Shown: piece by piece, positions 9,759-29,296 of the stretch
How positions within the stretch are numbered: position 1 is the stretch's first letter
Layout of the letters: each line of letters begins with the position of its first letter
From: Gemmatimonadales bacterium
GTDB lineage: Bacteria > Gemmatimonadota > Gemmatimonadetes > Gemmatimonadales > GWC2-71-9
Length of the DNA: 64,000 bases
Assembly: GCA_044229245.1 (NCBI GenBank)
Contig: JBGATI010000002.1
Span: 261,302 to 325,301, forward strand
Direction: 5' to 3'
Translations under genes and position numbers: made by a program
The notes under the pieces: model-generated
The model's input: the letters and a program-made list of their open reading frames with translations, nothing else
What the model was told of the DNA's origin: nothing
The model's database searches: none

Positions 9759-9781
9759 GACGTGTCTCGGGTAAGAGTGTA

Positions 9782-13043: not shown

Positions 13044-13063
13044 AGGCCAGTAGGTTATAGGTA

Positions 13064-13191
13064 GGTCTGTTACCCCGAAGGTGTTTCAGGGCGACGGCCA
13101 GATCAGTCCAGTATGAGGTACGACTGCGGGCGGTACAAGCCCTACCACAAACCGATCGCGGCGCCCTGTCAACGTCGTGCGATTGTCAGCC
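13064..13191 (-). repeat. attC-like imperfect palindrome E13 (128 bp)
   Basis: In gene orientation: GGCTGACAAT-CGCACGAC-GTTGACAGGGCGCCGCGATCGG...GGCCGTCGCCCTGAAAC-ACCTTCGG-GGTAACAGACC. It begins 4 nt after the Abi_C stop and ends 20 nt before the PIN-like ATG. Confidence 0.55.
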
Positions 13192-13195
13192 AGCT

Positions 13196-14044: not shown

Positions 14045-14155
14045 AAGTTGCAGGGCCGCGGCGCGCTCACCGCGGTAGGGTATCCCAGAAAAAGTCGTGC
14101 CATTGCCTTCGCTATCCGACGGCCGCGCTCTGCCAACTTCATGCCTTTGTTAGAC
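14029..14155 (-). repeat. attC-like imperfect palindrome E14 (127 bp)
   Basis: In gene orientation: GGTCTAAC-AAAGGCATGAA-GTTGGCAGAGCGCGGCCGTCGG...CGCGCCGCGGCCCTGCAAC-TTATGCGG-GGCGTAAGCC. It overlaps both the putAbiC stop and the Abi_C start. Confidence 0.55.
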
Positions 14156-15170
14156 CGCGCTCATCCGCGCGAAGATAGGCTGGCAATGAACGATCCGTGT
14201 TCTGCCATTCGAAATAGCCAGTTGGGAACAGCTTAGCCGCGTCCAACTCAAGCAGGGAATCGAAGAAGTCTCGTGGAAGATTCTTAACAAGCTTGTACCC
14301 AAGCATGTGCCCATCAGACCACCATACGTAGCCCAATGGGGTCAAAGAGTTCAGGAGAAAGAGAGCTTGCTCGTGTGTCGAGAACTGGGCGCGAACTGTC
14401 CTAACGTATTCATACTTGTCAACAGGCACGTCGGTTTTGTGAACGAACCCGACCAGCTGATATAGATGCCGGTAATAGTGACCAAGCCGAGATTGATGCC
14501 CTTGGAAGGGAATGTAGCGACCAGGCTTGCCATGCTTTCGGAAGAACGCTGCCTCCATTTCCAAGACGCGCGATACGTGTCGAGCCAGTTTGCGCTGATG
14601 ATCATCCAAGGTTGCCTCTACAAGTCGCCCGGAGTGGGCTCCGGCGCCATAGTAGAAGAAGTAATAGCTGATCTGAATTGCGTCGAGCGGAACAATGCGA
14701 ATGTTGTTGCGCCTTGCCTCTGCATGGACAACGCGGAGAATTCTCCGCCATTCCGAGAAAAGCTTAACGAATACAACTCTCCCTAGGCGTTTGCCTACTG
14801 CAATCGTGTCCGCGTTTGAGCGGTGTAGCGCTAGCAGGGTGTTGAACCGCGTCGCAAACCCTTCTGACGAGGCTGTGCGTCTCTGAGCCCTTAGCGTGGC
14901 CACGAGGAGTACGACGCTCACTAAGCCGAAGTATGTGCCAACGTAGCCGCCAACGAACTCGCCAAAGAGCGCCGCACTATTCCGGTCCAGCGTCCACGTT
15001 TCCCTGAAGGCAGGAGGGATGAAGGCAAGGTTAATGACGAGGAGCCCGACGATGAGTATGCCTATTTCGAGCGCGAGCGAGCGCGCTTTACGAAGGGATC
15101 GTGCAAGCCACATGTCGTAGCAGACCATAGTTAGCGAAAAGTAGCGGCAAACAAGATCGGGACCTGACAC
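14139..15170 (-). CDS. putative phage abortive-infection protein (putAbiC-like), N-terminal TM helices
   Basis: Two N-terminal hydrophobic helices followed by FQGHQSRLGHYYRHLYQLVGF, remembered as the putAbiC family signature. The true start may be ATG 15128 or 15110, because GTG 15170 lies inside repeat E15. Confidence 0.6.
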   Translation of the reverse strand: MSGPDLVCRYFSLTMVCYDMWLARSLRKARSLALEIGILIVGLLVINLAFIPPAFRETWTLDRNSAALFGEFVGGYVGTYFGLVSVVLLVATLRAQRRTASSEGFATRFNTLLALHRSNADTIAVGKRLGRVVFVKLFSEWRRILRVVHAEARRNNIRIVPLDAIQISYYFFYYGAGAHSGRLVEATLDDHQRKLARHVSRVLEMEAAFFRKHGKPGRYIPFQGHQSRLGHYYRHLYQLVGFVHKTDVPVDKYEYVRTVRAQFSTHEQALFLLNSLTPLGYVWWSDGHMLGYKLVKNLPRDFFDSLLELDAAKLFPTGYFEWQNTDRSLPAYLRADERGLTKA

Positions 15171-16280: not shown

Positions 16281-16526
16281 TCAAAACACCCCCACCCTCC
16301 GCCCCTCCCTCGCCTCCGTCACCGCATACCGCCCGGCCGCCGACCGCTCGACCCGCACCCGAGGGCCCCCCACCTGTAACCCGAACCTGCCATTCGACGA
16401 GTCGGGCTGGATCAGCAGCGCCACCCCGCCCGTTCCGCTGGCGTCGAGCGTCGCATGGGCACCCGGCTCGAGGTCGAACCCCGCCGGCGTCGCCAGGATC
16501 GTGTCCCGGCCGGCGGCGGGCGTCAC
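16281..16526 (-). CDS. short high-GC ORF, possibly a remnant of a host gene at the island edge
   Basis: 81-aa GTG-initiated ORF with protein-like composition (DTILATPAGFDLEPGAHATLDASGTGGVALLIQPD...). A TGA stop lies about 50 nt upstream in frame. No family recognised. Confidence 0.25.
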   Translation of the reverse strand: MTPAAGRDTILATPAGFDLEPGAHATLDASGTGGVALLIQPDSSNGRFGLQVGGPRVRVERSAAGRYAVTEAREGRRVGVF

Positions 16527-17005
16527 CGACCCCGCGATCCGCGCCCCGGCGCCGGCGGTGGTGAGCTTGAACTGGGGGCTTTCGGCACTGTCCGGTCAGG
16601 AAGCAATCCGGTGCTGCTCCCGCAGGACCCGCGCGGAACTCCGACCGGGCCCGACCAGGGTCGCAGTCAGGAGTGCCGCGGAGAAGAGGGAGCATGGCAT
16701 CGGATCCCCCGCCTGCACCCAGCGGCTCCTGGCCATCCCCAACCTGCTAGGCAAGTCGGGACCGCGCCAGTACCGCCATTGAGCCGAGTCAGGCAGACGT
16801 CAGGAACGCCACCCGCGCCCGTCAGCTCGCTCGGCAAATTCTTCCGGCCGCGAGGCCGGATCATATATGATCGCGTCGTCCCGCGGCCTCACACTCCCGC
16901 CCCCGCTGTCACTTTCCACCCCGCACGCACGTCCTATCAGGTGTCCGACACTGTCCACGCGAGTGTCCACCGACTGTCCTCGTGGACACTTTTCGGAGAC
17001 ACTGC

Positions 17006-17420
17006 ACAAGATCGCCGAATCGATTTTCCAGCCCGCCGTTTCGATTTCCAGACCGCCGAAACAACTGTCAGATTCCTGAACAGTCCGTCCAGGCGACCGA
17101 ATCAGTTGTCGAGCCCGCCGAAACATTCTTCCAGCCTCCCGAAACGACTCTCCAGGCCCGCGAAACAGTCGTCGAGATCGGCGAAACATTTCTCCAGACA
17201 GCCGAAACGAATCTCCGGACGACCGAATAGGTTCTCCAGCCCGCCGAAATGAAGTTCTGAGAGACGAATCGAACATCCGGACAGCCGCAGTAAACGTCCC
17301 GTTCGCTGGATGAGATGTCCAGTGCGCCGCACTGGATGTCCAGCGCACTGAACTGGACGTCGAGCTCACCGAACACGACGTCCAGCGCGCCGCGCTGAAC
17401 TCCAACTCTGCCGCCTCACA
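17006..17420. repeat. tandem 21-bp repeat, about 20 units, with three 20-bp units
   Basis: Units such as ccagcctcccgaaacgactct, ccaggcccgcgaaacagtcgt and cgagatcggcgaaacatttct. On the minus strand they read as the heptad F-G-x-L-(E/D)-x-x, and the reading phase changes at each 20-bp unit. Confidence 0.8.
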
Positions 17421-17642
17421 CCCCGATCCAGTCGCCGTCAAAATTCTTGGCGATCGAAATGATTGTCGAGCCGATGGAAGCGCCCGCCTGACACCGACAT
17501 CCCGCATCTGGCACAGAACTTACCGACGGTGCCCCCCGGCCCGTGCTCGGTCGACACGGGACCGCACTTCAACAGCACAGGACTGACGCGGGGTCGAGTT
17601 CTCGACCGGACTCCGCGGCCACGCTCACGAAAGGAGCGTCGT

Positions 17643-18341
17643 ATGACGGATTACATCAGCAGAGTGTTCGACATGGTCCTCCGCGTGCTGGTCTTCCTGC
17701 ACGCGAACCCCCTCGACACGCCCGCGTTCACCGCGAACCTGGCGCTGCTCGAGGCCGGCGCCGCCAGACTGAAGGAGCTGGCCGACATGGAACGGAGCGG
17801 TCACGTCGAGGCGAGTGCCGCCGTGATCGGGAAGAAGGAGGGGAAGGCCAATATCCTCGACGGCCTGAACTTCCTCGGCCGCGTCGCCATGGTCGCCACC
17901 CGAGAAATGCCGGAGATGCCGGTGCGGCTCACGATGCCTAAGCCGAACAGCGGGGCGCAGAAGCTGATCACCGGTTCCCGGGTGGTGGTGACCCAGGCGC
18001 GGGCCCAGCAGGAGCTGCTCACCAAGTACGGGATGACGACCGGGTTCCTGGATGAGCTCACCGTCTCGATCGACCAGTACGAGAAGGCGGTGAACACCAA
18101 GTCCTCCGGCGTCAACACGCACATCGGCGCCGCCGCCGAGATGGAGTCGGTGACCCGCGAAATCACTCGGCTCGTGAAGGTGATCGATGCCGTGCTGCGT
18201 CGGCGCCTGCGGAACGACCCGCAGAAGCGCGCCGCGTGGAAGGCTGCTCGCACGATCGTTCGTCATACGCCGAAGCCGGCGGAGGATCCGGCCGAGACAC
18301 CGACGCCGCCGAAGGCAGGGAGCGAGTCGCCGGCGGCGTGA
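17643..18341 (+). CDS. hypothetical protein
   Basis: ATG preceded by AAAGGAG. 232 aa, helical-looking, with a Pro/Ala-rich tail. The start was trimmed from track ORF 17463..18341. Confidence 0.65.
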   Translation: MTDYISRVFDMVLRVLVFLHANPLDTPAFTANLALLEAGAARLKELADMERSGHVEASAAVIGKKEGKANILDGLNFLGRVAMVATREMPEMPVRLTMPKPNSGAQKLITGSRVVVTQARAQQELLTKYGMTTGFLDELTVSIDQYEKAVNTKSSGVNTHIGAAAEMESVTREITRLVKVIDAVLRRRLRNDPQKRAAWKAARTIVRHTPKPAEDPAETPTPPKAGSESPAA

Positions 18342-18345
18342 TTTT

Positions 18346-18466
18346 AGTACTTAGTGCTTAGTGCTTAGTGCTTAGTGCTTGGTCTCAGGCACTAGGCACT
18401 AGGCACTAAGCACTCATTCGCACCCGGAACCCGGAACCCGGAACCCGGAACTAAGCACTAAGCACT
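18346..18466. repeat. heptanucleotide array H1: (AGTGCTT)n hairpin plus (CCGGAAC)4 plus (TAAGCAC)2
   Basis: agtacttagtgcttagtgcttagtgcttagtgctt GGTCTC aggcactaggcactaggcactaagcact, then cccggaa x4. Lies between two convergent stop codons. Confidence 0.9.
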
Positions 18467-18801
18467 CCATAGGCCAGCACTGCCATGAGGATCCCCAGCA
18501 CGCTCACCATGATGATCGCCGGGGTTTCGCGGTACTTCACATGGACGCCGATGAAGACCAGGCTCTCGAGCGCGAGGACCGCGGCGGCCACGCCGGTCAG
18601 CACCGGCGAGAGGTGGAGGAGTGGCGGGAGAATGAAGCAGGCGACGCAGATGAGCTCGACGACGCCGAGTGCGGTCCAGGCCCGCTTCGGCAGCGCACCG
18701 AAGGAGGGAACGTCGACGCTGACCTTGTCGAACATGAACACTTTCATGATGCCGGACGCGCCGTACACGAGCGTGGCGAGACCCTGCAGGACCCAGAGCA
18801 T
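18451..18801 (-). CDS. DoxX-like family membrane protein
   Basis: 116 aa with four hydrophobic helices and a DoxX-like layout. The last codons GVLSA-TAG lie inside array H1. Confidence 0.75.
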   Translation of the reverse strand: MLWVLQGLATLVYGASGIMKVFMFDKVSVDVPSFGALPKRAWTALGVVELICVACFILPPLLHLSPVLTGVAAAVLALESLVFIGVHVKYRETPAIIMVSVLGILMAVLAYGVLSA

Positions 18802-18818
18802 ATGCGCTCCCTGTGTTG

Positions 18819-18902
18819 AGTACTCAGTACTTAGTACTCAGTACTTAGTACTTAGTGCATAGTGCTTAGTACTCGGAACTCGGAACTCGGTACTCGGAAC
18901 TA
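18819..18902. repeat. heptanucleotide array H2
   Basis: (AGTACTC/AGTACTT/AGTGCTT) x8 followed by (GGAACTC) x4. Confidence 0.9.
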
Positions 18903-19205
18903 TCAAGCTTTTCCCCGCATCTTCGCCGCCCACCAGCGGAGGCCGACGAAGAGGAAGCGCCAGTCGTGGAAGAACTCGGGCGGCTTGCCTTCTACCGCGT
19001 GGCCGATGAACTGCAGCGCCCACCCGGCCACGAACAGCCCCAGCGCCACGGGCCAGAGGCCGTGCACGAATAAGGAGAGAGCGAAAAGGACGAGGGAAAC
19101 GACGATGGTCGGGATGCCAAGGGTGTGGCAGAACCGGTTGAACGGATGCTGATGACTCAGGCCGTACTGGGCGATCCATTCATTCCACGGGCGTCCACCG
19201 AGCAT
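18903..19205 (-). CDS. DUF962 (Mpo1-like) membrane protein
   Basis: HPFNRFCHTLGIP ... FIGHAVEGKPPEFF is typical of DUF962. Start trimmed to ATG 19205, which is preceded by AGGGAG. Confidence 0.8.
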   Translation of the reverse strand: MLGGRPWNEWIAQYGLSHQHPFNRFCHTLGIPTIVVSLVLFALSLFVHGLWPVALGLFVAGWALQFIGHAVEGKPPEFFHDWRFLFVGLRWWAAKMRGKA

Positions 19206-19222
19206 AGGCGCTCCCTGTGTTG

Positions 19223-19299
19223 AGTGCTTAGTACTAAGTACTAAGTACTTAGTGCATAGTGCGCAGTACTCGGAACTCGGAACCCGGAACTCTGAACTA
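19223..19299. repeat. heptanucleotide array H3
   Basis: (AGTGCTT/AGTACTA/AGTACTT/AGTGCAT...) x7 followed by (GGAACTC/GGAACCC) x3-4. Its terminal GAACTA supplies the TAG stop of the next gene. Confidence 0.9.
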
Positions 19300-19929
19300 T
19301 TGGTCGCTCCACCGAAACGTCCGCCCGACGGCCCGCAGCCGCCCGAGCAGCGTGGTGTTCTCGCGGTCTCGGCTGTCGACCGAATACTCGATGACGGCGA
19401 TCCGTCCCCTGCTCCCCGCCACCAGCGCCTCGGAGCTGCAGCCCTCGCAGTGGAGCGCCAGGCGGAGGGCGGTGTCCGAACCAAGGAGCACCGAAGGCAA
19501 CTCGGTCGGCCGGGGATCGAAGCTGCTCGGATTCACCGGCGCATCCATCCGGAAGTGGTCGCGCATCCACTGCTTGAGGCCCAGCCGGCGCGCGTCCTGG
19601 AAGGTGGTGACCGTCACGGCGCACGGCCACGAGCACTCCGGCAGGTCGGTGACCCGGAACTTCCGGTTGGCGGGACGATCGGGGTCCCGCCAGCGGGCGT
19701 CGGCCACGGCGGGGACAGTGAGCGTGAACCCGCCGCCATCGGCGATCTGGGTCGAGTCCCACGAGCCGGGATGCGGGAGCCCGAAGCCGGGCGTGGCCTG
19801 ATGATCGGCGGGAACCATCGAGGCCATGGCGGTCTCGTCGGTCGAGTCGGCATCGGCCGACGCCGGCGGCGAATCGCCCTGGTGACAGGCCGAGAGCAGG
19901 ACGAGCAGCAGTAACGGATGGTGGCGCAT
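19297..19929 (-). CDS. lipoprotein, unknown function
   Basis: MRHHPLLLLVLLSAC lipobox; 210 aa; no family recognised. Confidence 0.6.
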   Translation of the reverse strand: MRHHPLLLLVLLSACHQGDSPPASADADSTDETAMASMVPADHQATPGFGLPHPGSWDSTQIADGGGFTLTVPAVADARWRDPDRPANRKFRVTDLPECSWPCAVTVTTFQDARRLGLKQWMRDHFRMDAPVNPSSFDPRPTELPSVLLGSDTALRLALHCEGCSSEALVAGSRGRIAVIEYSVDSRDRENTTLLGRLRAVGRTFRWSDQ

Positions 19930-20013
19930 GGGTCCCTGGGCGGGCCGACGGACGGGGATAACCTGCGGGCCGCAACGGAGGAACGCCAGTGCCCGCGGGA
20001 GCCCGCGCGGGAG

Positions 20014-20140
20014 CGCTCGGCTGAGGCCAGTAAACTGGCCCGGTCCATTCCTTAGCGTCGCTTCAGCGACATCAGCCGAGCCGTCGCTTCAGCGACGAGC
20101 TCGGACGGGGTGAGGCCGCGTTCAATCGCGGCCCCCACAT
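20014..20140 (+). repeat. multi-hairpin repeat S1
   Basis: GCTCGGCTGAGGCCAGTAAACTGGCCC..GTCGCTTCAGCGACATCAGCCGAGCCGTCGCTTCAGCGACGAGCTCGG..GGCCGCGTTCAATCGCGGCC. One of three copies. Confidence 0.85.
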
Positions 20141-20226
20141 TCGAACCTCGGAACTCGAAACCCGAAACCCGGAACCCGGAACTAAGCACCAAGTACTAAG
20201 TACTAAGTACTAAGTACTAAGTACTA
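20141..20226. repeat. heptanucleotide array H4
   Basis: (CGGAACC-type) x5-6 followed by (TAAGTAC) x6. Confidence 0.9.
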
Positions 20227-20716
20227 TCTCAAACAACGTCTCCCACGCCGATGTTCCGATCTGTTCGATCAGCGCGAGCCGAGTCAGCGTCATCGTGATC
20301 GGGGTGTTGAGCGACGCCCAGGTGGACGGCAGGTTCTCCGGTGCGCGGGGATTCCGTGGGTGGGCCAGGGTGATGTGGGGACGGTGGGCGCGGATCGTGT
20401 CGGTGCCGAGGAGTGCCACGCGGAGCCGCTGGAACTCCGGCTGGCCGGCGGTGCAGGGGAGGAGCACGCCGTGGCCGTCGAACTGCTCCGGTGCGCCGAA
20501 GGTCAGGGTGATCGGCGCGGGCCGAGCCTCGCGGCAGCGCCCCTCGAGTTCATCCACCGAGTACGCCGCCAGCTCGTCCTCGCGGCAGAGCGTGACGTGG
20601 GCGGGGATGAGCCGGTGCTGCACCGGATCGAGCCGCGTCCGGATCGCCTCGAGCGTGGCGCGGGCCGGGTCGGAGACGAAGAGGGTGAACTGGCGGCGCA
20701 GCCGAGCCTCACTCAC
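20210..20716 (-). CDS. 2H phosphoesterase superfamily (LigT / 2'-5' RNA ligase-like)
   Basis: Two H-x-T-x motifs (PAHVTL and PHITLA). The last codons IVLST-TAG lie inside array H4. Confidence 0.75.
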   Translation of the reverse strand: MSEARLRRQFTLFVSDPARATLEAIRTRLDPVQHRLIPAHVTLCREDELAAYSVDELEGRCREARPAPITLTFGAPEQFDGHGVLLPCTAGQPEFQRLRVALLGTDTIRAHRPHITLAHPRNPRAPENLPSTWASLNTPITMTLTRLALIEQIGTSAWETLFEIVLST

Positions 20717-21215
20717 GACCGGCCTCCGGTGCGTTGGGCAGGTAGCGGCGCCATTCGTCCGACTCCAGCGCGGCCTTGAGCAGCTCCGCGCGGCGGGCGA
20801 TGAAGCGTCGCATGTACGCCGTCAGGAATGTCACTTCGGCCGCGCGACCGAGCAGGCCGTACGGCGCCACGAAGCTGAAGAGATCGGTGACGACGGTCCG
20901 GTCAGCATGCTGGCGAGATGGTTTGAAGAAGTGATCGTGGTCGAAGCGCTCGAAGGCGCCGCGCACCTGGGAGTCGCGGAAATGCTCGGAGGGCGACCAC
21001 GCGGTGATCTCGCTGGTCAGCTCCTGCCAGACGCCGAGATGCCGCGCCCGCCAGGTGACCTGGTCGCCCAGTGTGAGCAGCCCGGTCCGGACGCCGCCGA
21101 CGACGGATTCTCCGGTGCCCGGGGTCGAGGCGAGGTGGAAGTCCACGCTCCGGGCAAGATCGAAGCAGCGCTCCAGCGGCGCCGCGATCTCGAGTTCTAT
21201 GCGGATGACGGGCAC
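20709..21215 (-). CDS. SRPBCC (START/polyketide-cyclase-like) domain protein
   Basis: The IELEIAAPLERCFDL... layout is typical of SRPBCC. Overlaps the downstream 2H gene by 8 nt. Confidence 0.7.
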   Translation of the reverse strand: MPVIRIELEIAAPLERCFDLARSVDFHLASTPGTGESVVGGVRTGLLTLGDQVTWRARHLGVWQELTSEITAWSPSEHFRDSQVRGAFERFDHDHFFKPSRQHADRTVVTDLFSFVAPYGLLGRAAEVTFLTAYMRRFIARRAELLKAALESDEWRRYLPNAPEAGRE

Positions 21216-21238
21216 GGGTGACTAACGCCGCGAGGAGG

Positions 21239-21487
21239 TCATCGGTTCCGCTGCCGCAGCTTCGCCAGCGTCGCCTTGAGATAGCGCCGATACCCCGCCG
21301 GGCTCATCCATCCCTTCGGCGCAGGAACTCGGCGCAGTCGCCGGGGCGCAAACTCGACGAACTGATCGCTCGACCCGGAAACTCTCCGCACCCGCACCCG
21401 CCAGCGCGCGGCGATCCGGGCCCGGATCCGGCCGATGCGGCCATCCGGGAGCCGCACGCAATCGCCAACGGCGAGCCTCGTGGTCAT
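21239..21487 (-). CDS. small basic hypothetical protein (82 aa)
   Basis: MTTRLAVGDCVRLPDGRIGRIRA.... Trimmed from track ORF 21239..21778, which otherwise runs through repeats S2 and H5. Confidence 0.4.
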   Translation of the reverse strand: MTTRLAVGDCVRLPDGRIGRIRARIAARWRVRVRRVSGSSDQFVEFAPRRLRRVPAPKGWMSPAGYRRYLKATLAKLRQRNR

Positions 21488-21532
21488 CGTCTCCCCGCGG
21501 AAGGGCGGACAGGCGGACGGGCGGACAGGCGG

Positions 21533-21675
21533 ATCGCGGCTAAAACCGCGGCTCGGCTGAGGCCAGTGAACTGGCCCTGCCATTCCCGACCGTCGCTTTA
21601 GCGACATCAGCCGAGCCGTCGCTTTAGCGACGAGCTCGGACGGCGTGAGGCCGCGATGAATCGCGGTCCCACATT
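21533..21675 (+). repeat. multi-hairpin repeat S2
   Basis: CGCGGCTAAAACCGCG, then the same core as S1 with GGCCAGTGAACTGGCC and GTCGCTTTAGCGAC x2, then CCGCGATGAATCGCGG. Confidence 0.85.
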
Positions 21676-21746
21676 CGGAACCCGGAACCCGGAACCCGGA
21701 ACCCAAAACCCGGAACTCGGAACCCGGAACCCGGAACCCGGAACTA
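21676..21746. repeat. heptanucleotide array H5
   Basis: (CGGAACC) x10 with two variant units. The terminal GGAACTA supplies the TAG stop of the upstream gene. Confidence 0.9.
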
Positions 21747-22190
21747 CCCCGGAATCTCCGCGTGCACCAATTGCGCAAGAAGGGTGAGCGACTCCTGCCA
21801 CCCGAGATAGCATCCCTCGGGCGGAATCGCCTCGGGGATCCCCTCCTGCACGATGCTGATGTCGGTGCCGACGGACACCGGTTTCAGGTCGATCGTCGTC
21901 TGCATGACGCCGGGCAGGTTGGGATCGTCGAAGCGGTCGGTGTGGCGGATCCGCTGGTTGGGCACCAGCTCCACGAACTCGCCGCCGAAGGAGTGGCCGT
22001 TGCCGGAGCTGAAGTTGGTGAAGGTCATGCGGTAGGTGCCGCCGACCCGGGGCTCGAGATGATGCACTCTGCAGGTGAAACCATGCGGCGGCAGCCACTT
22101 GGCCAGCGCGTCCGCATCGAGAAACGCACGATAGACACGCTCGGCCGGGGCGCTGAGGACTCGATGGAGCCGGACGGTACCTGTCGACAT
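21744..22190 (-). CDS. SRPBCC / AHSA1 (Aha1-like) domain protein
   Basis: RVLSAPAERVYRAFLDADALAKWLPP ... GWQESL is typical of AHSA1. Start trimmed to ATG 22190, after GAAGGAAGG. Confidence 0.8.
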   Translation of the reverse strand: MSTGTVRLHRVLSAPAERVYRAFLDADALAKWLPPHGFTCRVHHLEPRVGGTYRMTFTNFSSGNGHSFGGEFVELVPNQRIRHTDRFDDPNLPGVMQTTIDLKPVSVGTDISIVQEGIPEAIPPEGCYLGWQESLTLLAQLVHAEIPG

Positions 22191-22204
22191 GGAGGGCCTT
22201 CCTT

Positions 22205-22282
22205 CTGAACTCGGAACTCGGAACTCGGAACTATGCACTAAGTACTAAGTACTAAGTACTAAGTACTAAGTACTAAGTACTT
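22205..22282. repeat. heptanucleotide array H6
   Basis: (GGAACTC) x3-4 followed by (TAAGTAC) x7. Abuts the TAA stop of the next gene. Confidence 0.9.
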
Positions 22283-23436
22283 TATCGCTTGATCCAGCTC
22301 CCACTCTGTCGCCCGACCAGTTCAACAAGATTCCCCATCACCACTTCCATATCGACCAGATGCAGCCCGAGCGGCTCCGCCAGGTCGCCCTGGATGTCGC
22401 GGCTCGCGGGACTGCCGGGGCCGCGGTCGACCGTGATCTCGAGGTAGGTCGCAAAGGCGTTGGTGGCGCACTTCCCCTTCAGCATGCCGGCGACGCGCAC
22501 CATCGGCGTCGCGATCGGTTTGCCGCCGACGGTCCACGGCTCGGTCGGTCCCCACGGCAGCGCCGTCGCGCCGGTCGCGTCGAAGTAGCCGCTGAGCGGC
22601 GCCTCACCGCCGCCGAGTGAGGCGGGATTGGTGCAGGCGGCGACGAGGGTCGAGTCGGCCGAGCGGCCGAAGACGGAGGTCGCCGACGGCGGCGCGGTGC
22701 TCCGGAAGGCGGAATAGGTCACGATACAGCCGGTCTGGGTCGCGGCGCGGCAGAGCGGCATCCGCTTGAAGGTGCCGCCGACATCCTTGCCGCGCGGCAC
22801 CTGGATGCCGCCCGGGATGCCGATGATGTACGCGGCGACGATGCGCGACGCGACCGGCGTGCCCTCGATCTCGCGCTGGATGAGCGCGGTGAGCAGGACG
22901 CTGCCCTGCGAATGCCCGATCAGGACCACCCCGCGCCCGCCGTTGTCGTGCGACAGATAGTAGCGCCACGCGGCGCGGACATCGTCGTAGCCGGGTCCCA
23001 GGAAATCGGGCGACGTGACGCCGGCGGCGTTGAGCCGGCCCATCTCGGCGAGGGTGAGCTGCCGGTAGATCGGCGCGAAGAGCCGGCACTTCGTCCCGAA
23101 CCGCGCGAGCTGCAGCCGCACCACCGCCCGCTCGGCGTCATCCGCGACGAGATCGCTGTACGTCGTCGTGTCGGTGGACACCGTGGGATAGACGTAGAAG
23201 CAGTCGACCGGCGCCTTCGGATCGAGCGGCGCCTTCTCGACGGTGACGCCGCCGCCCGGACTCAGCACCGTGGTGGAGAGATCGACGTCGCACGCGCCGA
23301 GGTGGTCGGGGCGGCAGAGCCAGGTGGCGGGGCTGGCGTAGTCCGGCGCCGGCGGAATGGCGCCGGTCTGCGCGGAGGCACCCGTCGCCGCGATCGAGAG
23401 CGCCAGGATGATGAGGCGGGGCAGTCGGGTCTGCAT
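22282..23436 (-). CDS. secreted alpha/beta hydrolase (DUF3089-like)
   Basis: Signal peptide MQTRLPRLIILALSIAATGASA. VLIGHSQGS nucleophile elbow. Start trimmed from a 528-aa track ORF, and it overlaps the upstream stop (TGATG). Confidence 0.75.
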   Translation of the reverse strand: MQTRLPRLIILALSIAATGASAQTGAIPPAPDYASPATWLCRPDHLGACDVDLSTTVLSPGGGVTVEKAPLDPKAPVDCFYVYPTVSTDTTTYSDLVADDAERAVVRLQLARFGTKCRLFAPIYRQLTLAEMGRLNAAGVTSPDFLGPGYDDVRAAWRYYLSHDNGGRGVVLIGHSQGSVLLTALIQREIEGTPVASRIVAAYIIGIPGGIQVPRGKDVGGTFKRMPLCRAATQTGCIVTYSAFRSTAPPSATSVFGRSADSTLVAACTNPASLGGGEAPLSGYFDATGATALPWGPTEPWTVGGKPIATPMVRVAGMLKGKCATNAFATYLEITVDRGPGSPASRDIQGDLAEPLGLHLVDMEVVMGNLVELVGRQSGSWIKR

Positions 23437-23840
23437 CAGTACTTCACCTTCGCGATCTCCTCGTTCGGGGTGAAGTTGTCCCCGAAGTCCTCGATGTCCA
23501 TCAGCTTCCGGATCTCGACCACCGTCTCGCCGTTCGGCGAAAGGTTCGGCGCCCGCTTCACCCATTCGATCGCCTCGGCCAGCGACTTCACCTGGATGAT
23601 CGAGAAGCCGGCGATGACTTCCTTCGTCTCGGTGAACGGCCCATCGAGGACGGTGCGCTGGTCGCCGCTGAACTTGACCCGCGCCCCCTTCGCCGTCGGC
23701 GAGAGCCCCTCGGCCGCGAGCAGGATGCCGGCCTTCACCAGGTCCTCGTGGTACTGCTGCATCGCGGCCATCGCTTCGGCGGTCGGCGGCACCCCCGCCT
23801 CGGACTCCTGGGTGGCCTTCCCGATGATCATGAATCGCAT
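23436..23840 (-). CDS. YciI-like (DGPF) family protein
   Basis: MRFMIIGKAT... VLDGPFTETKEVIAGFSIIQVKSLAEAIEW is typical of the YciI fold. AGGAG lies before the ATG. Confidence 0.8.
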   Translation of the reverse strand: MRFMIIGKATQESEAGVPPTAEAMAAMQQYHEDLVKAGILLAAEGLSPTAKGARVKFSGDQRTVLDGPFTETKEVIAGFSIIQVKSLAEAIEWVKRAPNLSPNGETVVEIRKLMDIEDFGDNFTPNEEIAKVKY

Positions 23841-23997
23841 GCTGCTCTCCTGGCTCAGGTCCGTGCATGGCGCCGCGCCGGTCGCGGGCTCTGAGACACG
23901 ACGAACGGGACCGGGCAAAATCGACAACGACTGCGAGGGAGCCCTAAACAGTCGCAGGCCAAGAACTTAGCGCTATTCCCCCGGGAGAACAGCGATC

Positions 23998-24065
23998 AGG
24001 CACCAGGCACTAATCACCCGGAACCCGGAACCCGGAACCCGGACCCGGAACTAAGTACTCAGCAC
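23998..24065. repeat. heptanucleotide array H7
   Basis: (AGGCACC/AGGCACT) then (CGGAACC) x4-5 then TAAGTACT. Confidence 0.85.
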
Positions 24066-24632
24066 CGCGTCGAAATAGTGATTCTCCCCCTCATCCTCAT
24101 ACTCCGCCACCAGCCGAAGCCCCGCCGCCTCGAGGGCCGCGACATACCCGTCCCGCCCGAGTGAGTACGACGGCCGCCGAGTGAGCACGTCGACCCATTC
24201 CACCTGCTGCGAAGGCGCGGTGAAGAGCAGCCGGCCGCCGGGACGAAGCGCCGCGCCCAGCCGCGCAATGACCGCCGGCTGCGATTCGGCAGACAGGAGG
24301 AAGAGGAGTCCCCACGCCACGACGCCGTCGAACTGGCGCGCAAAGCAGCCGCTGGTCTCGATCGGCTCCGCCAGGGCGGGGACCCCGGGGAAGTTCTGCC
24401 GGAAGAGCTCGATCATCGCCGGTGAGGCGTCGAGGGCGTGCAGCCGGCACCCCGCCTCCACGAGCGCGCGCGAGATCGGGATCCCCGTCCCGCAGGCGAC
24501 GTCCAGCACCGCCGCGCCTGACGGAAGCCCCTCGGCCCACCGCTTCACCGTCGCGGCGCCGATCGTCGAGCCGTTCCTGCGCCGGGCGAATTCGGCGGCG
24601 ACCACGTCGTATCCGTTCGCGATATCAGCCAC
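24051..24632 (-). CDS. class I SAM-dependent methyltransferase
   Basis: Motif I VLDVACGTGIP. 193 aa. The last codons AVLST-TAG lie in array H7. Confidence 0.85.
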   Translation of the reverse strand: MADIANGYDVVAAEFARRRNGSTIGAATVKRWAEGLPSGAAVLDVACGTGIPISRALVEAGCRLHALDASPAMIELFRQNFPGVPALAEPIETSGCFARQFDGVVAWGLLFLLSAESQPAVIARLGAALRPGGRLLFTAPSQQVEWVDVLTRRPSYSLGRDGYVAALEAAGLRLVAEYEDEGENHYFDAVLST

Positions 24633-24654
24633 TCGATCCTCGGAACCCGATGGG

Positions 24655-24761
24655 CTCGCGGCTGAAGCCGCGGCTCGGCTGAGGCCAGTAAACTGGCCCT
24701 AGTCCTTGCGAATGTCGCTTTAGCGACATCAGCCGAGCCGTCGCTTCAGCGACGAGCTCGG
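24655..24761 (+). repeat. multi-hairpin repeat S3
   Basis: CGCGGCTGAAGCCGCG followed by the same core as S1 and S2. The 3' part diverges. Confidence 0.85.
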
Positions 24762-24841
24762 TGCGCAGAACTCTGCGCCCCCGCGCCTCCGCGGAGAACG
24801 ACCACAGATTGCTTCGGCCGCTTCGCGGTCTTGCAATGACT

Positions 24842-24896
24842 AGCACTCGGAACCCGGAACCCGGAACCCGGAACTAAGTACTAAGCACTAAATCAC
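24842..24896. repeat. heptanucleotide array H8
   Basis: (CGGAACC) x4 followed by TAAGTAC TAAGCAC TAAATCAC. Confidence 0.85.
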
Positions 24897-25788
24897 GGAC
24901 TTGTCTGATCGTCTCGGGCGTCGTCCGGCAACACCCCCCAATCCACGTCGCGCCCGCACCGAGCCAGTCCCGCACCAGTTCATCGAGCGGCGCCACCGTC
25001 GCCGAGCCGCGCCAGCAGTGCGCCTCGCCATCCCAGACCTCGCCCGAGTTGGGATAGACCACGATCGGCTTGCTCGTCCCCTTCCGGAGTTCGCGGATGA
25101 GGGACGCCGTCGTCTCGGGGCGCACGCAGTTGACTCCGACCGCGATCACCTGCGGCTCCTTCTCGAGCATCCGGGCGCAGTCGACCAGCGGCTCGCCGTG
25201 CGCGGTGTGGCGGTCGTCGCGCGCGGTGAAGCTCACCCAGGCGCGCGCCGCCGGGACGTCGTGCAGCACCTCGGTGAGCGCCTTGGCTTCATCGAGGGAG
25301 GGGATCGTCTCGCAGGCCAGGAAGTCGGCGCCTGCCGAGGCGAGCACTTCGAGCCGTTCGCGATGGAAGTGGCAGAGTTCGCCGATGGTGAGCCCGTAGT
25401 CGCCGCGGTACTCCGAGCCGTCGTGCAGCGTGGCGCCGTAGGGGCCGACCGACGCCGCGACCCACATCGGCCGGGAATCGGTCGCCGCGACCTCGCGCCG
25501 CGCCTCCGCCGCGAGCTCCACCGAGCGGCGGAGCAGCCGGTCGGTCCCCGCCTTGTCCAACCCTCTGGTCGCGAAACCGGCGTAGCTCGCCTGGTAGCTC
25601 GCGGTGATGGCGACATCGGCGCCTGCCGCGTAGTACGCTCGGTGCACCTGGCGTATCAGATCGGGTCGTTCCGCCAGGATCCGCGCCGACCAGAGCCCGC
25701 CGGAGAGGTCGGCGCCCGCCCGCTCCAGCTCCGTCGCCAGTCCGCCGTCCACAATCCGGAAATCCCGTGGCATTCCGTCCCCGTCCAT
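24874..25788 (-). CDS. mmuM: homocysteine S-methyltransferase
   Basis: GGLATELE, ITASYQAS, GVNC and IGGCCRTTPE motifs. The start is uncertain (ATG 25788 or 25773). The last codons LVLST-TAG lie in array H8. Confidence 0.85.
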   Translation of the reverse strand: MDGDGMPRDFRIVDGGLATELERAGADLSGGLWSARILAERPDLIRQVHRAYYAAGADVAITASYQASYAGFATRGLDKAGTDRLLRRSVELAAEARREVAATDSRPMWVAASVGPYGATLHDGSEYRGDYGLTIGELCHFHRERLEVLASAGADFLACETIPSLDEAKALTEVLHDVPAARAWVSFTARDDRHTAHGEPLVDCARMLEKEPQVIAVGVNCVRPETTASLIRELRKGTSKPIVVYPNSGEVWDGEAHCWRGSATVAPLDELVRDWLGAGATWIGGCCRTTPETIRQVRDLVLST

Positions 25789-26016
25789 ATAAAGGAAAGA
25801 CCCGACCGGCAACTTACCATCCGGCCCCGAAAGCGACCATTTCGCCCCGCCGATCCGTGAATTTGCCGCTTCACCGATGCAACACTCAAACGTCACACCC
25901 CACCCTGTGACTTGGGACACCTGCGGGGCTCGCGGCATCTGCTAGTGTGATAACCGCGTCGGCATCCGCCGACAGATCCAGATCCCACTAGAACGCCGTC
26001 TCGAGGACTCACCGTC

Positions 26017-28623
26017 ATGGCCGCCTTCCTGAGCAATCTGCGCCGGAGTGGTTCCGCGGAGGATCTCGCCGAGCTGCAGCAGCTCGTGACCCGTCTCGAA
26101 TCCCAGCGCGGCAGTCTCGAACAGCTCGTCCAGCACGCCGACCGCTCCATCGGTCAGCTGCAGCGACTCGGCACCCTCGGTGAGCGGGTGAACACCCTCG
26201 AACGCCAGCTCTCCGGGATCGAGCATCTCGCCGCCCGGCTCGGCGCGGCCGAGAGTCAGCTCGCCGGACTCGCCGGCACCCACAACCGGCTCGAGACCCA
26301 GATGGCGGAAACCGCCACCGGCATCGAGCAGGCGCGGGTGGACGTGACGCTGCTGACCGAGACCGTGGCCGCGACCGCGCGGCTGAAGGACGAACTCTCC
26401 GGCTTCCTCTCCCTCAAGGGGCCGTTCAGCCAGCTCAAGTCCGAGATGGAGGGGCTGCAGTCGCAGAACGAGGCCTTCCGCGCCGACTTCGCCCGGCTCC
26501 GCGATCAGCACGACGCCACCCTCAACAGCTACAAGACGGCGTCGGGCCGGATCGAGTCGTTCGACGGCGACTGGCAGCGGATCACCCGCACCGTCGCCGA
26601 GACCGAGAACCGCATCAGCGGGCTTGAGCAGCTCGTCGCCGACATGATGGGGGTCGCCGAATCGGTGGCGCAGACCAAGCGCCAGCTCGCCGGCGCCAAG
26701 GCGATGGCCGATCAGCTCGGCCAGAAGGTGGCGCTTCTCGAGCAGCAGCGGGACGAGGTCGATCGCGCCACCGCCAAGCTCGAGCACCTCACCGCGCTGA
26801 TGCAGCGGGTGGACCAGGGCGCCGAACGCTCCAGCGAAGCGGTGCGCACCGTCGCCGCGCTCCGCACCGAGCTCGAGTCGCTCGAAGAGGCGCAGACCGC
26901 GCTCACCGAGCGGAGCCGCTCCGTCACCGAACGGCTCGAACGGATCGAAAGCGGCCAGACCGCGGCGGAGCGGAGTCTCGTTTCGCTCCGCGAAGGGCTC
27001 GACCAGAGCACCGAGCGGCTCGCGCTCGAGAGCCGGAGCGTGGAGGGGATGGGGCAGCGGGTCGGCGACCTCCGCCGGAACCTCTCCGAGTGGGAGGCGC
27101 GCTTCGCGACCCTCGCCGCCGGCGCGGAGGCGATCACCACCGCCGCCTCGAAGGCCGACACCCTCTCGACCCAGGTCACCAGTCTTACGGGCGAACTCGC
27201 CCGCGTCGCCGAGCTCGGATCGCGGGTTCGCACCGGGCTCGCCGATCTCGAACGGCTCGAGGAGGGGATCGGCGGACTCACCGAGCGCACCTGCCGGCTG
27301 GAGGAGTCGCGCCCGCTGCTCGAGCGCACCGTCCGCGATCTCTCCGGACTCGGCGCCACCGAGGAGGCGATTCACGAGGCGCTCGAACAGCTCCGCGGCG
27401 CCCGCAAGGAGCTGAGCGACACCCGCGGCACCCTCGATCAGACCCGCACCTGGCTCGGCGAGACCGACCGGAGCGTCGCGGCGCTGAAGACCGATGTCGC
27501 CGGACTCGACCGGATGCGCGCCACGGTGGATGCGCTCCGCCAGGAGCTGGAGCAGCTCAACAGCCAGATGACCGTGGTCGAAGGGCGGCGCGGCGTGGTG
27601 GACGACGTGCAGAAGCGCCTGACGGAAGCGGCGGGGATGGGCGCCTCGATGGAGGCGCGCGCCCGCGGGCTCGCCGAGCGGCTGGAGGCGGCGGAGGATC
27701 ATCTCGGGACGCTGGTGCCGAGGCTCGATGAGGTCGGGCGCGCGGGGAACCAGCTCGTGAGTCTCGGCGCCGAGGTGCGGGAGATGGAAGAGCGGGTGCG
27801 TGCGGTGCAGGGGACGGTGAAGGGGGTCGAGCAGCGCGCGAGCGGGCTCGAGACCCTCGCCAACCGGATGCAGGAGCTCTCCCGCGAGATCGATCAGCGC
27901 CAGAATGCGCTCGCCAGGGCGACCGAGCATCTCGATCGCGCCGCGACGCTCCGGCAGGAGGCGGCGGTCGCCGCGCAGACCCTGGCCGACCGGGCGCGGG
28001 AGGTGGATGCATCGCTGGTTGCCGCGGATCAGCGGCTCACGAGCTGTGATTCGCTGTCGCGCGAGCTGGAGGCGCGGATCGGGGTGCTCAACAGTGCGCA
28101 GGAGCGGATCACCGGCTTCGAGGCAAAGCTGGCCGACTGGCGCGGGGCGGAGCAGCAGCTCGCGCAGGCGATGGAGCAGGCGGTCGCGCGGCAGGCGACG
28201 ATCGCCTCGCTGCAGAGCGAGATCCGGGCACTCTTCGATCTGGCGGAACGCACCCAGGACGATGCCCGCGCGGTGACGGCGGCGCAGCCGCAGATGGCCC
28301 GCGCCCGGAGCGAGCTCGACGCGCTCCTCGCGCGGCTCGGCGACACCGACGGCATCATGCAGACACTGGAGGATCGCCGCCGCCAGCTCGACCGCACCGA
28401 GGAGCGGCTGGCCCACGCCGACCTGCTCGCCACCGATGTGCGGGAGTCGCTCGAGACCCTGGTCGCCCAGAAGGCGCAGGTGGATCACTTCCTCGGCATG
28501 GCGAGCGCGCTCACCCTGGAGACCAAGCGGGTCGAGGGGCTGCTCGAGGCGCTCCGTGACGAGCGCCGCCTCTCCGACCGGGTGCAGTCGTCGCTGGCCG
28601 GATTGCGGCGGCAACCCGAATAA
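26017..28623 (+). CDS. 868-aa all-coiled-coil protein
   Basis: Continuous Leu/Glu/Ala/Arg/Gln heptad-like sequence with high GC3. No enzymatic motif (no Walker A) was seen. Confidence 0.75.
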   Translation: MAAFLSNLRRSGSAEDLAELQQLVTRLESQRGSLEQLVQHADRSIGQLQRLGTLGERVNTLERQLSGIEHLAARLGAAESQLAGLAGTHNRLETQMAETATGIEQARVDVTLLTETVAATARLKDELSGFLSLKGPFSQLKSEMEGLQSQNEAFRADFARLRDQHDATLNSYKTASGRIESFDGDWQRITRTVAETENRISGLEQLVADMMGVAESVAQTKRQLAGAKAMADQLGQKVALLEQQRDEVDRATAKLEHLTALMQRVDQGAERSSEAVRTVAALRTELESLEEAQTALTERSRSVTERLERIESGQTAAERSLVSLREGLDQSTERLALESRSVEGMGQRVGDLRRNLSEWEARFATLAAGAEAITTAASKADTLSTQVTSLTGELARVAELGSRVRTGLADLERLEEGIGGLTERTCRLEESRPLLERTVRDLSGLGATEEAIHEALEQLRGARKELSDTRGTLDQTRTWLGETDRSVAALKTDVAGLDRMRATVDALRQELEQLNSQMTVVEGRRGVVDDVQKRLTEAAGMGASMEARARGLAERLEAAEDHLGTLVPRLDEVGRAGNQLVSLGAEVREMEERVRAVQGTVKGVEQRASGLETLANRMQELSREIDQRQNALARATEHLDRAATLRQEAAVAAQTLADRAREVDASLVAADQRLTSCDSLSRELEARIGVLNSAQERITGFEAKLADWRGAEQQLAQAMEQAVARQATIASLQSEIRALFDLAERTQDDARAVTAAQPQMARARSELDALLARLGDTDGIMQTLEDRRRQLDRTEERLAHADLLATDVRESLETLVAQKAQVDHFLGMASALTLETKRVEGLLEALRDERRLSDRVQSSLAGLRRQPE

Positions 28624-28683
28624 CCCGCGGGCCGCACCACTCAGTAGCCCGCGGCCTCCGTGCCGCGGGCTATCTTTGTTCCC

Positions 28684-29187
28684 ATGACCTCCGAACAACT
28701 CCGCGCCCTCCAGGCGCCACTCAAGCAGCGCTACCGTACCGATCCCGCCTCCGCGCTCGTCACCTCCGTCGTCGTCGCGACCCTCGATCAGGGCCGGATC
28801 GCCTGCCACGTCGAGGCGCCGAACGCCGGTGCCGACGTCGGGCTCCATCCCGCAGCCGGCGGCAGCGGGGCTCAGCGCTGCTCCGCCGACATCCTGCTCG
28901 AGGCGCTCGCCGGCTGCGCCGGCGTCACCCTGCTCGCCGTCGCCACCGCGATGGGGATCACGGTGCGGAGCGGCACGATCAGGGCCGAGGGGGACTGGGA
29001 CGCGCGCGGCACGCTGGGGGTGAGCAAGGAGGTTCCGGTCGGACTCCTCGCGGTAAGGCTCACCGTCACCCTCGACAGCACTGCGACGGAGGAGCAACTC
29101 GCCAAGCTGCTCGATCTAACCGAACGGTATTGTGTTGTAGCTCGGACGCTGTCCGAAGGTGTCGGTGTTTCAGTGCTTAGTGCTTAG
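28684..29187 (+). CDS. OsmC family peroxiredoxin-like protein
   Basis: LLEALAGCAGVTL and LTERYCVV give the two conserved Cys contexts of OsmC. The last codons VLSA-TAG lie in array H9. Confidence 0.8.
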   Translation: MTSEQLRALQAPLKQRYRTDPASALVTSVVVATLDQGRIACHVEAPNAGADVGLHPAAGGSGAQRCSADILLEALAGCAGVTLLAVATAMGITVRSGTIRAEGDWDARGTLGVSKEVPVGLLAVRLTVTLDSTATEEQLAKLLDLTERYCVVARTLSEGVGVSVLSA

Positions 29188-29296
29188 TGCTTAGTGCGTG
29201 ATCGCCAAGGCTCGTACCGAGCACTAAGTACTAAGTACTAAGTACTAAGTACTAAGTACTAAGTACTTAGTACTCAGTACCAAGCACTCGGAACTA
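29172..29296. repeat. heptanucleotide array H9 (long hairpin)
   Basis: (AGTGCTT) x3-4, a 23-nt loop, then (AAGTACT) x8, ending in ..CGGAACTA. Confidence 0.9.

Follow-up and report, generated by a model that had tools for sequence, protein, structure and literature searches.

Stop-codon-anchored heptanucleotide arrays in a Gemmatimonadales genome: a new sequence family of hypermutable intergenic repeats with a possible hairpin role

We analyzed a 64,000-nucleotide stretch of the genome of a soil-type Gemmatimonadales bacterium (contig JBGATI010000002.1; the whole 64-kb stretch is hereafter called the window) in which tandem heptanucleotide arrays lie clustered between genes. Their units are either AGTACTT-like (A units) or GTTCCGG/GTTCCGR-like (B units). 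We conclude with high confidence that these arrays are a new sequence family of a known class, that is, hypermutable intergenic heptanucleotide repeats anchored at stop codons. Moderate confidence attaches to their working mode, which may resemble that of the repetitive extragenic palindromic (REP) elements, with the arrays forming hairpins of a putative transcribed spacer. Taken as a whole, the explanation that slippage-grown, stop-anchored heptamers act as REP-like hairpins in 3′ untranslated regions (UTRs) and between cistrons stands, in our judgment, evenly poised between right and wrong.

Tandem Repeats Finder (TRF) and an independent period-7 autocorrelation scan placed arrays at nine intergenic loci only, H1 to H9 (18343-18466, 18817-18901, 19223-19298, 20144-20229, 21673-21746, 22203-22283, 23997-24066, 24843-24891, and 29169-29296), all within 18343-29296. 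By both methods the other 53 kb of the window is free of arrays, bar a two-unit seed or remnant at 41531-41549 that adjoins the stop of an M61 peptidase gene. An earlier sequence-only reading of this DNA was thus right about the nine loci and about the emptiness of the rest. Dinucleotide shuffles predict 0.79 occurrences of the tandem dimer CGGAACNCGGAAC with at most one mismatch; the window has 29, every one of them on the + strand. For AGTRCTNAGTRCT the window count is 70, against 0.18 expected. Copy numbers run from 2.4 to 11, which corrects the 3-10 per locus first proposed. The same reading held that nearly every intergenic gap was filled; counted from coordinates, 9 of the 12 gaps in 18.3-29.3 kb do carry arrays, yet these make up only roughly 40% of the intergenic bases there. 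The three array-free gaps measure 23, 36, and 78 nt. A unit within the 5-11 nt range, in arrays longer and more numerous than chance, is what characterizes intergenic heptanucleotide long simple sequence repeats (LSSRs), and the 7-nt arrays of the window are of this kind.

The two kinds of unit are closely related. AGTACT is a 6-bp palindrome, and AGTACTA, initially taken for a variant, is therefore AGTACTT read from the reverse strand, just as the supposed variant AGGCACT is the reverse complement of AGTGCCT. Intermediates (AGTACCG, AGTGCCT, and AGTGCAT) bridge A and B units, which form one AGTNCNN-like series: AGTACTT, AGTGCTT, AGTGCCT, AGTACCG, AGTTCCG, and GGTTCCG. The proposed division into two families reflects in part the two strands of the same units, and intermediate units join its halves. 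A single locus can combine both unit types. A units contain a stop codon in all three frames on both strands, and B units contain none. The GTTCCGR arrays of the window are all on the - strand, the coding strand of the adjoining genes, and every B array of the window, taken on the coding strand of the gene before it, is in the GTTCCGR sense. A fixed order of stop codon, A array, and B array had also been put forward. That order is present at only five of nine loci (H1 from the DoxX side, H4, H6, H7, and H8); H2 and H3 run stop, B, inverted A, H5 has B units only, and H9 has A, a spacer, inverted A, and one B unit.

The arrays are tied to stop codons. All ten array-bordering genes in the window end inside an array or at most 4 nt from it, in agreement with the association with gene 3′ ends suggested earlier, and the array often supplies the TAG stop itself (for example, ...GTG CTT AGT ACT TAG). 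In convergent pairs (H1, and a pair in contig L001) each gene has its own sense-oriented array, which yields an inverted arrangement; array orientation thus follows transcription of the adjoining gene and not the replication fork. Arrays beside start codons have the opposite orientation (H2, H3, H9, and contigs L002 and L019), and the sole divergent gap of the region (25939-26016, the 78-nt gap) is array-free, a placement and orientation typical of the heptanucleotide LSSR class.

The same rule could be followed beyond this genome. A scan of metagenome contigs for (GTTCCGR)x4 returned at least 120 loci with GC contents of 0.39-0.73. In a strand-symmetric test on the 120 contigs listed, which considered open reading frames (ORFs) of at least 60 codons ending at most 15 nt from an array, the stop-proximal arm read GTTCCGR in the sense direction 28 times and in the antisense direction 6 times (binomial p ~1e-4), and TAG was the commonest stop (18 of 35). 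An overall bias of B arrays between co-directional genes was rejected, since in these contigs the orientations are equal when all such arrays are counted (15 vs 17); the bias is confined to the stop-touching arm. The overall equality arises because an antisense array in many cases forms the second hairpin arm, in the architecture stop-(GTTNNNR)n-loop-(YNNNAAC)n-start, which is common outside the window.

These counts bear on the main rival explanation, in which the arrays are neutral or selfish by-products: slippage-prone, quasi-palindromic heptamers that are copied locally and purged only from coding sequence and promoters. Stop contact would then arise as arrays expand until they meet an ORF, A units carrying stops in all frames. 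The 28:6 bias, however, involves a unit that is stop-free on both strands, and mere tolerance does not predict such a bias. We regard neutrality as possible, though we lean clearly away from it.

Turnover is visible in L010, an 8.1-kb contig of a Gemmatimonadales metagenome-assembled genome (MAG) that was assembled independently and is syntenic with window positions 16934-24005, with flanks 91-97% identical. L010 carries arrays at the same seven positions as the window. Every orthologous locus differs between the two assemblies in copy number and in unit variants: the LigT A array (H4) has 5 units in the window and ~12 in L010, the AHSA1 B array (H5) has 10 and 7, and the Mpo1-to-DoxX inverted-A array (H2) has 8 and 5. 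The B units of H4 are GGGTTCC in the window and GAGTTCC throughout in L010, which points to homogenization within arrays. Because two independent assemblies hold the arrays at the same positions, we rejected an assembly artefact; and because orthologous arrays differ in copy number, slippage-type turnover is demonstrated, with the same intergenic position kept in relatives at different copy number and with different variants, as is usual for the class. Slippage had been deduced earlier from differences between loci; it is the comparison of assemblies, proposed as a check, that reveals the polymorphism. Very fast turnover and variable copy number suit the neutral account, under which the retention of 7 of 7 comparable arrays across 3-9% flank divergence is harder to understand. 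Both ends of L010 fall in repeats, one in array H7 and the other in a block of 21-nt repeats at ~17.0 kb, indicating that short-read assemblies break at them. A further polymorphic repeat type lies at this locus: the 8-nt tandem repeat GGCGGACA (21497-21533; x3.8), upstream of an 82-aa ORF, has one unit fewer in L010 (about 2455-2480). As to relatives more broadly, one window gene product is 100% identical to a protein of that MAG (labeled Gemmatimonadales bacterium, GCA_044229445.1), more distant homologues of window proteins are labeled Gemmatimonadales or Gemmatimonadetes, and exact-match look-ups of three window proteins gave no further contigs.

Traces of copying are also present. The A arrays of H2, H3, and H6 all end in a rare unit, AGTGCAT, as do those in L001 and L010. 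Common to H2 and H3 are an irregular stretch and a 15-nt leader, identical in both, that contains a Shine-Dalgarno (SD) sequence, CAACACAGGGAGCGC (- strand; 18804-18818, directly past the H2 array, and 19208-19222, after H3), of which there are 2 exact copies against 0.27 matches expected at up to two mismatches. These shared features argue that arrays were dispersed by copying whole spacer modules and not by independent birth.

Duplication of array modules in both orientations might also be expected if the arrays were recombination sites bounding mobile gene cassettes, whether integron-like or shuffled by homologous recombination, an idea that would account for the run of small, unrelated, same-strand genes, each with an array behind it. 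Ten such genes lie on one strand, an array after each, and around the conserved YCII-DUF3089 gene pair the gene content is wholly different in the distant relatives L011 and L012 (DUF3089 78-80% identical), where only this pair is kept. Nevertheless, Pfam scans found no integrase, transposase, or other recombinase among the window ORFs, and the 69 array-flanking ORFs scanned in other taxa likewise yielded no recombinase and no family that recurs. The window and L010 agree in gene order apart from a single difference in gene content, a 1-kb DUF1963 gene, and this gene is flanked by a CCGGTCGTG-like repeat and not by arrays. We therefore consider cassette recombination extremely unlikely. In L010 the extra DUF1963 gene (3221-4243) separates SRPBCC from LigT, two genes that overlap in the window (20714-20730); the possibility that this indel is bounded by arrays was rejected, as its junction is a short direct repeat of the kind just named, at the start-codon region. 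Near the orthologous gene, L011 and L012 lack both A and B arrays. At 16477-16540, between two co-directional genes, L011 (DUF3089 80% identical) has a (CTTCCCT)8 array, and a different heptamer in a related genome favors the neutral account.

The B unit is far more widespread than the combination with A. An exact B-A junction is present in three Gemmatimonadales MAG contigs and in contigs labeled Acidobacteriaceae (a 5.4-Mb chromosome), Leadbetterella, Lacihabitans (both of these genera being Bacteroidota), and a Rickettsiales MAG; GC contents of 0.46-0.69 confirm that these hosts are diverse, despite possible MAG mislabeling. GTTCCGR arrays also occur in MAGs of several phyla. An A-like array accompanies B in just 1 of the 120 B-seeded metagenome contigs listed, so co-occurrence as a general rule was rejected, and we take the A+B combination to be lineage-specific. 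Recurrence of one unit in many phyla speaks against neutrality. Array lengths among the matches listed are roughly geometric (four units, 60; five, 21; six, 13; seven, 5; then a long tail), with the four-unit peak marking the lower limit set by the search pattern, and this near-geometric distribution favors the neutral account.

IMG/VR contigs contain clusters of other quasi-palindromic heptamers, including AGTGCTG, AGTCCTG, CAGCTGA, AGATCTT, and AGGTCTT, and in one of these contigs, L029 (IMGVR_UViG_3300010379_000871), a genuine, GC-rich phage structural module (portal, capsid, and cement genes), heptamer-built hairpins lie between co-directional genes. There, arrays of AGAACTT, AGATCTA, AGTGCTT, and AGGTCTT, partly as inverted pairs, occupy 761-837, 4448-4483, and 8080-8161. 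L019/L021 (IMGVR_UViG_3300005578_000008; units AGTGCTG, AGTCCTG, and ACTCGGA) and L028 (IMGVR_UViG_3300047160_011294; units CAGCTGA, CCGCTKT, AAGAGGC, and AGTACTT) have 9-14 heptamer arrays per 5-12 kb between short genes; clustered mixed arrays are thus not unique to the window.

The arrays could also be read as G-quadruplex elements, as proposed for the Xanthomonas GGGAATC repeats, with (GGGTTCC)4 on the coding strand fitting the G3N4 consensus. On their coding strand, four of the eight window B arrays match that consensus; arrays of four units outnumber those of any other length; and the positional rules are those of the Xanthomonas repeats. Four units is, however, also the minimum of our search pattern; only 29 of the 120 metagenome arrays listed fit the consensus, GAGTTCC and mixed arrays being the majority; A-type arrays have no G runs; and present data suggest that the positional rules hold equally for GAG-only arrays. 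We rejected the G-quadruplex as a general property, and we judge it very unlikely as the explanation.

Predicted RNA folding points to hairpins where arrays of opposite orientation face each other. The hairpin at H1 (~30 bp) has a predicted energy of -68 kcal/mol (z -9.4), and that at H9 reaches -66.5 kcal/mol (z -9.6). In L010 the predicted H1 hairpin is kept at -67 to -69 kcal/mol though the units differ. The more sweeping idea that every array folds on itself, its unit being a self-complementary hexamer plus one base, is partly true at best: folding is modest for GGGUUCC and AGUACUU arrays and lacking for GAGUUCC arrays. On the coding strand, G.U pairs improve the folding of GGGUUCC arrays.

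A terminator role had been suggested for the arrays, and in its classical form, a GC-rich hairpin followed by a U tract, it was not supported. No hairpin with a U tract stands at an array end, terminator-like sites number 4 against 5.7 expected, and the sole one inside an array is a 6-pair stem at H5 (21709-21728). Related arrays lie inside the co-directional phage module, whose genes we take to be co-transcribed; this location and the missing U tracts argue against strong termination of transcription. No sigma-70-like promoter was found in the array region and no tRNA or tmRNA gene was detected. Rfam gave 0 matches at the gathering threshold, and a permissive scan gave only sub-threshold miRNA-precursor look-alikes for the long hairpins, which are meaningless.

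We suggest the following scheme. Slipped-strand mispairing would grow and shrink the arrays, and copying of whole intergenic modules would spread them locally; they would persist only where tolerated or useful, in the spacer that starts at a stop codon. The stop-adjacent arm reads AGT.../GTTCCGR on the coding strand, and the opposite orientation is that of arrays beside the start codon of a downstream gene and of arrays that belong to a convergent gene. If transcripts include the spacer, as a 3′ UTR or between cistrons, opposite arrays (and, less so, the quasi-palindromic units by themselves) may fold into long imperfect hairpins. Like REPs and bacterial interspersed mosaic elements (BIMEs), these could block 3′-to-5′ exonucleases or present RNase III-type processing sites, and hairpins flush with the stop codon could modulate translation termination. 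The arrays might in this way set the relative expression of neighboring genes, tunable via copy number. A putative stabilizer or processing role is plausible.

Several observations weigh against this REP-like scheme. Single arrays, whether A or mixed, have only modest folding scores (z -0.9 to -3), and GAGTTCC-only arrays barely fold alone (-0.6 to -2.8 kcal/mol). At H2 and H3 the B array faces an inverted A array to which it is not complementary; a strong hairpin is thus not formed at every locus. Outside Gemmatimonadales, AGTGCTT-type arrays show mixed orientation relative to genes, as judged from crude gene calls. Function gives no account of why the arrays keep to 11 kb of the 64-kb window, and the AGT.C core is conserved across taxa although a pure "any hairpin will do" model does not need it. 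Transcription of the arrays and their effect on RNA fate are, moreover, steps that we infer. The neutral account draws support from elsewhere, too: the neighboring genes are unrelated with no recurring associated protein family, the arrays are clustered in an accessory region beside a defense island, and polymerase slippage is Mrazek's explanation of heptamer excess, as cited in PMC4679880.

Conservation of the AGT.C core across unit variants and taxa also favors a third possibility, that the arrays are platforms on which a sequence-specific protein finds a binding site every 7 nt. Candidates would be a HutP/TRAP-type ring-shaped RNA-binding regulator reading NAG at fixed spacing, or a DNA-binding or nucleoid protein using the 21-bp super-period (two helical turns). 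On the coding strand the units read UAG/GAG + N4, the spacing recognized by HutP, and arrays usually have 3-10 units. A heptamer-binding factor was likewise postulated by MacGregor (PMC4679880) and in a study of Nostoc recF/recO. On the other hand, no candidate protein was found and no family recurs beside arrays in the 69 ORFs; start-proximal arrays are oppositely oriented, so the mRNA would lack one consistent motif; and units drift freely (G/A at position 7, A/G/T at position 4). We hold this explanation to be decidedly unlikely, and it, the G-quadruplex, and cassette recombination are all less likely than non-functional products of slippage and copying. A bolder proposal joins several of these threads: AGTNCNN/GTTCCGR arrays would be a cross-phylum, orientation-specific 3′-UTR element, in which a self-renewing repeat builds a stop-anchored gene-end hairpin read by a conserved cellular machine (which may be the terminating ribosome, an RNase, or a ring-shaped NAG-N4-binding protein). 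We think it unlikely. If it were true, there would be a second, REP-independent way to punctuate bacterial operons, and copy number would be a dial on expression that evolution can turn.

The individual loci illustrate how the rule is realized. At H1, arm 1 (18344-18380, + strand; TRF and period-7 scan) is (AGTACTT)(AGTGCTT)x4 and begins 3 nt past the TGA stop of the + strand gene 17643-18341; arm 2 (18387-18414, - strand; TRF and folding) is (AGTGCCT)x3 plus AGTGCTT, read AGGCACT on the + strand, and makes the ~30-bp hairpin with arm 1. TRF places a B array, (GTTCCGG)x4.3, at 18422-18451 (- strand) and a further (AGTGCTT)x2.4 array at 18450-18466 (- strand), which encodes the final codons and TAG stop of the DoxX gene (18451-18801). 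H2 (18817-18901, - strand; TRF and period-7 scan) consists of the Mpo1-like stop, (AGTTCCG/AGTACCG)x4, (AAGTACT-type)x8, the shared leader, and the DoxX start. H3 (19223-19298, - strand) has the stop of a 210-aa gene, four B units, A units of mixed orientation, the same leader, and the Mpo1-like start (19205).

The remaining - strand loci, H4 to H8, are built as follows. At H4 (20144-20229) the LigT stop lies inside (AGTACTT)x6.6, followed by (GTTCCGG/GTTTCGG/GTTCCGA)x5; H5 (21673-21746) is (GTTCCGG)x10 from the TAG stop of the AHSA1 gene onward. H6 (22203-22283) has the DUF3089 TAA stop, (AGTACTT)x6.4, AGTGCAT, (AGTTCCG)x3.7, an SD sequence, and the AHSA1 start, its arrays filling the 91-nt spacer between the two genes. 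The methyltransferase stop at H7 (23997-24066) is inside AGTACTT, with (GTTCCGG)x5.3, one unit being of 6 nt, and (AGTGCCT)x2; the homocysteine S-methyltransferase stop at H8 (24843-24891) is inside AGTGCTT AGTACTT, then (GTTCCGG)x3.9. On the + strand, H9 (29169-29296) has the OsmC stop inside (AGTGCTT)x3.7, a 25-nt spacer, inverted (AAGTACT)x9.4, one CGGAACT, 15 nt, and the GluQ-RS start. The seed or remnant at 41531-41549 (- strand) reads TAG GA AGTTCCG AGTACCG, its two units starting 2 nt past the TAG stop of the M61 peptidase gene (41547-43337).

A second, larger repeat accompanies some of these arrays. It is a 95-128-nt multi-hairpin element in - strand sense, at 20015-20135, 21545-21672, and 24668-24761 of the window and at 2311-2438 and 4907-5028 of L010, with copies ~90% identical and predicted RNA folds of -51 to -74 kcal/mol (z about -5). 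The first two copies lie just downstream of a B array and the third ~85 nt downstream, and all precede the next gene. It has no Rfam match, is absent from the other loci compared, and looks like a species-specific REP-like or miniature inverted-repeat transposable element (MITE)-like element or a small structured RNA.

The window has a GC content of ~68% and is chromosomal, given its housekeeping genes (transketolase, threonine dehydratase, sulfite reductase, and the 2-oxoglutarate dehydrogenase E1 component by Pfam). Genes bordering the arrays are small and functionally unrelated by Pfam. Those of the region on the - strand encode DoxX, an Mpo1-like protein, a 210-aa hypothetical protein, a LigT-like protein, SRPBCC, the 82-aa ORF, an AHSA1-like protein, DUF3089, YCII, a methyltransferase, and homocysteine S-methyltransferase; those on the + strand encode a 232-aa hypothetical protein, an 868-aa coiled-coil protein, OsmC, and GluQ-RS. 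The 868-aa ORF (26017-28623), with coiled-coil-type Pfam matches only, sits mid-region and forms a divergent pair with the homocysteine S-methyltransferase gene. The stretch 17009-17392, upstream of the 232-aa gene, holds ~17 degenerate 21-nt tandem repeats with a CCGAAAC core, a period of 3 x 7 nt; both long overlapping ORFs of this block give Arg/Ser-rich translations and it is apparently non-coding. Immediately left of the heptamer region is a defense island of lower GC (6233-15170; 0.55-0.58), encoding a patatin phospholipase and a CD-NTase/SMODS protein with an AGS-C sensor (like a cyclic-oligonucleotide-based antiphage signaling system, CBASS), a PIN_12 protein, and two abortive-infection proteins (Abi_C and putAbiC).

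Catalogs of intergenic heptamer arrays go back decades and include the short tandemly repeated repetitive (STRR) sequences of cyanobacteria, Mrazek's LSSRs, Xanthomonas GGGAATC, and Beggiatoa TAACTGA; to our knowledge, none of these has an established function. The present family is easier to study, with a simple positional rule, a hairpin consequence, turnover between close strains, and GTTCCGR in at least 120 metagenome contigs and several phyla; these features make the question of function testable by reporters and 3′-end mapping. The arrays also carry a practical cost, since short-read MAG contigs break at them.

Among known systems, the STRR sequences of heterocystous cyanobacteria are likewise dispersed intergenic heptanucleotide arrays of variable copy number with several unit families per genome. 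Their defining units are CCCCAGT, TTGGTCA, and CAACAGT; all three are absent here and the host is not cyanobacterial, so the arrays are not STRRs, although the other strand of STRR1 (AGTCCCC) fits the AGTNCNN pattern. The sequence-only reading had seen just this, a similar style with different sequences, and the arrays are indeed intergenic and linked to 3′ ends. The enterobacterial REPs and BIMEs offer a likeness in possible working mode, as hairpin repeats in 3′ UTRs and intercistronic spacers, often a few nt from the stop. REPs stabilize upstream mRNA and can interfere with translation termination. They differ in being ~35-nt imperfect palindromes with a GTAG head, mobilized by REP-associated tyrosine transposases (RAYTs); ours are tandem heptamers, and no RAYT-like gene or transposase was among the Pfam matches of the window and neighboring ORFs. 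Contingency-locus simple sequence repeats (SSRs), which underlie phase variation, share slippage-driven copy-number change. Those SSRs, however, lie in the 5′ part of ORFs or in promoter (-35/-10) spacers of surface or restriction-modification genes, whereas the window arrays follow the stops of ordinary metabolic and hypothetical genes, where a change in copy number alters only the last few residues because A units have stops in all frames. Nor are these integron sites, there being no tyrosine recombinase in the window by Pfam and the units misfitting RYYYAAC/GTTRRRY.

Parallels extend to Xanthomonas, itself a high-GC host (~65%), and to Nostoc. The TAACTGA repeats of Beggiatoaceae, cyanobacteria, and Bacteroidetes (MacGregor 2015, PMC4679880) are also intergenic direct heptamers, patchy across phyla, with no recognizable transfer mechanism and a proposed post-transcriptional role. 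They lie mainly just 5′ of start codons, in forward orientation and overlapping the ribosome-binding site, in 2-6 non-palindromic copies (PMC4679880); the window arrays, in contrast, are anchored at the stop codon. The heptamers described by Rehm et al. 2015 (PMC4692102), GGGAATC in Xanthomonas and GGGGA(C/T)T in Nostoc, are tandem and strongly intergenic like ours. They lie 0-50 bp from the stop on the coding strand, overlapping stop codons; those that precede an ORF are on its non-coding strand; divergent genes are depleted of them; and a given spacer can hold arrays of different length in Xcc and Xac. The window arrays share the flipped orientation close to starts, the rarity between divergent genes, the recurrence at the same positions in relatives with differing length or sequence, the functionally unrelated neighbors, and the lack of a mobile-element link. 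They differ in having other units, not uniformly G-rich, most arrays being unable to form quadruplexes; the unit is not of the GGGNATC type, whose four or more G-tracts would allow a quadruplex. The units are, further, quasi-palindromic, opposite arrays build long hairpins, two unit types occur per locus, and the host is a member of the Gemmatimonadales.

The sequence-only reading knew of no description for a high-GC genome, which was not borne out. Heptamers with the same positional rules are described in Xanthomonas (PMC4692102), and heptanucleotide LSSRs in Burkholderia and Actinobacteria (Mrazek 2007, as summarized in PMC4679880). In our full-text literature searches, no paper reported bacterial repeats built of these units, and none dealt with heptamer arrays of Gemmatimonadetes. 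Because the positional rules, the polymorphism, and the high-GC occurrence are already documented, we class the arrays with a known phenomenon. Set against the earlier descriptions as excerpted and summarized in the sources cited here, three features may go further: the quasi-palindromic unit series, the hairpins made from opposite arrays with one arm per flanking gene, and the wide occurrence of GTTCCGR.

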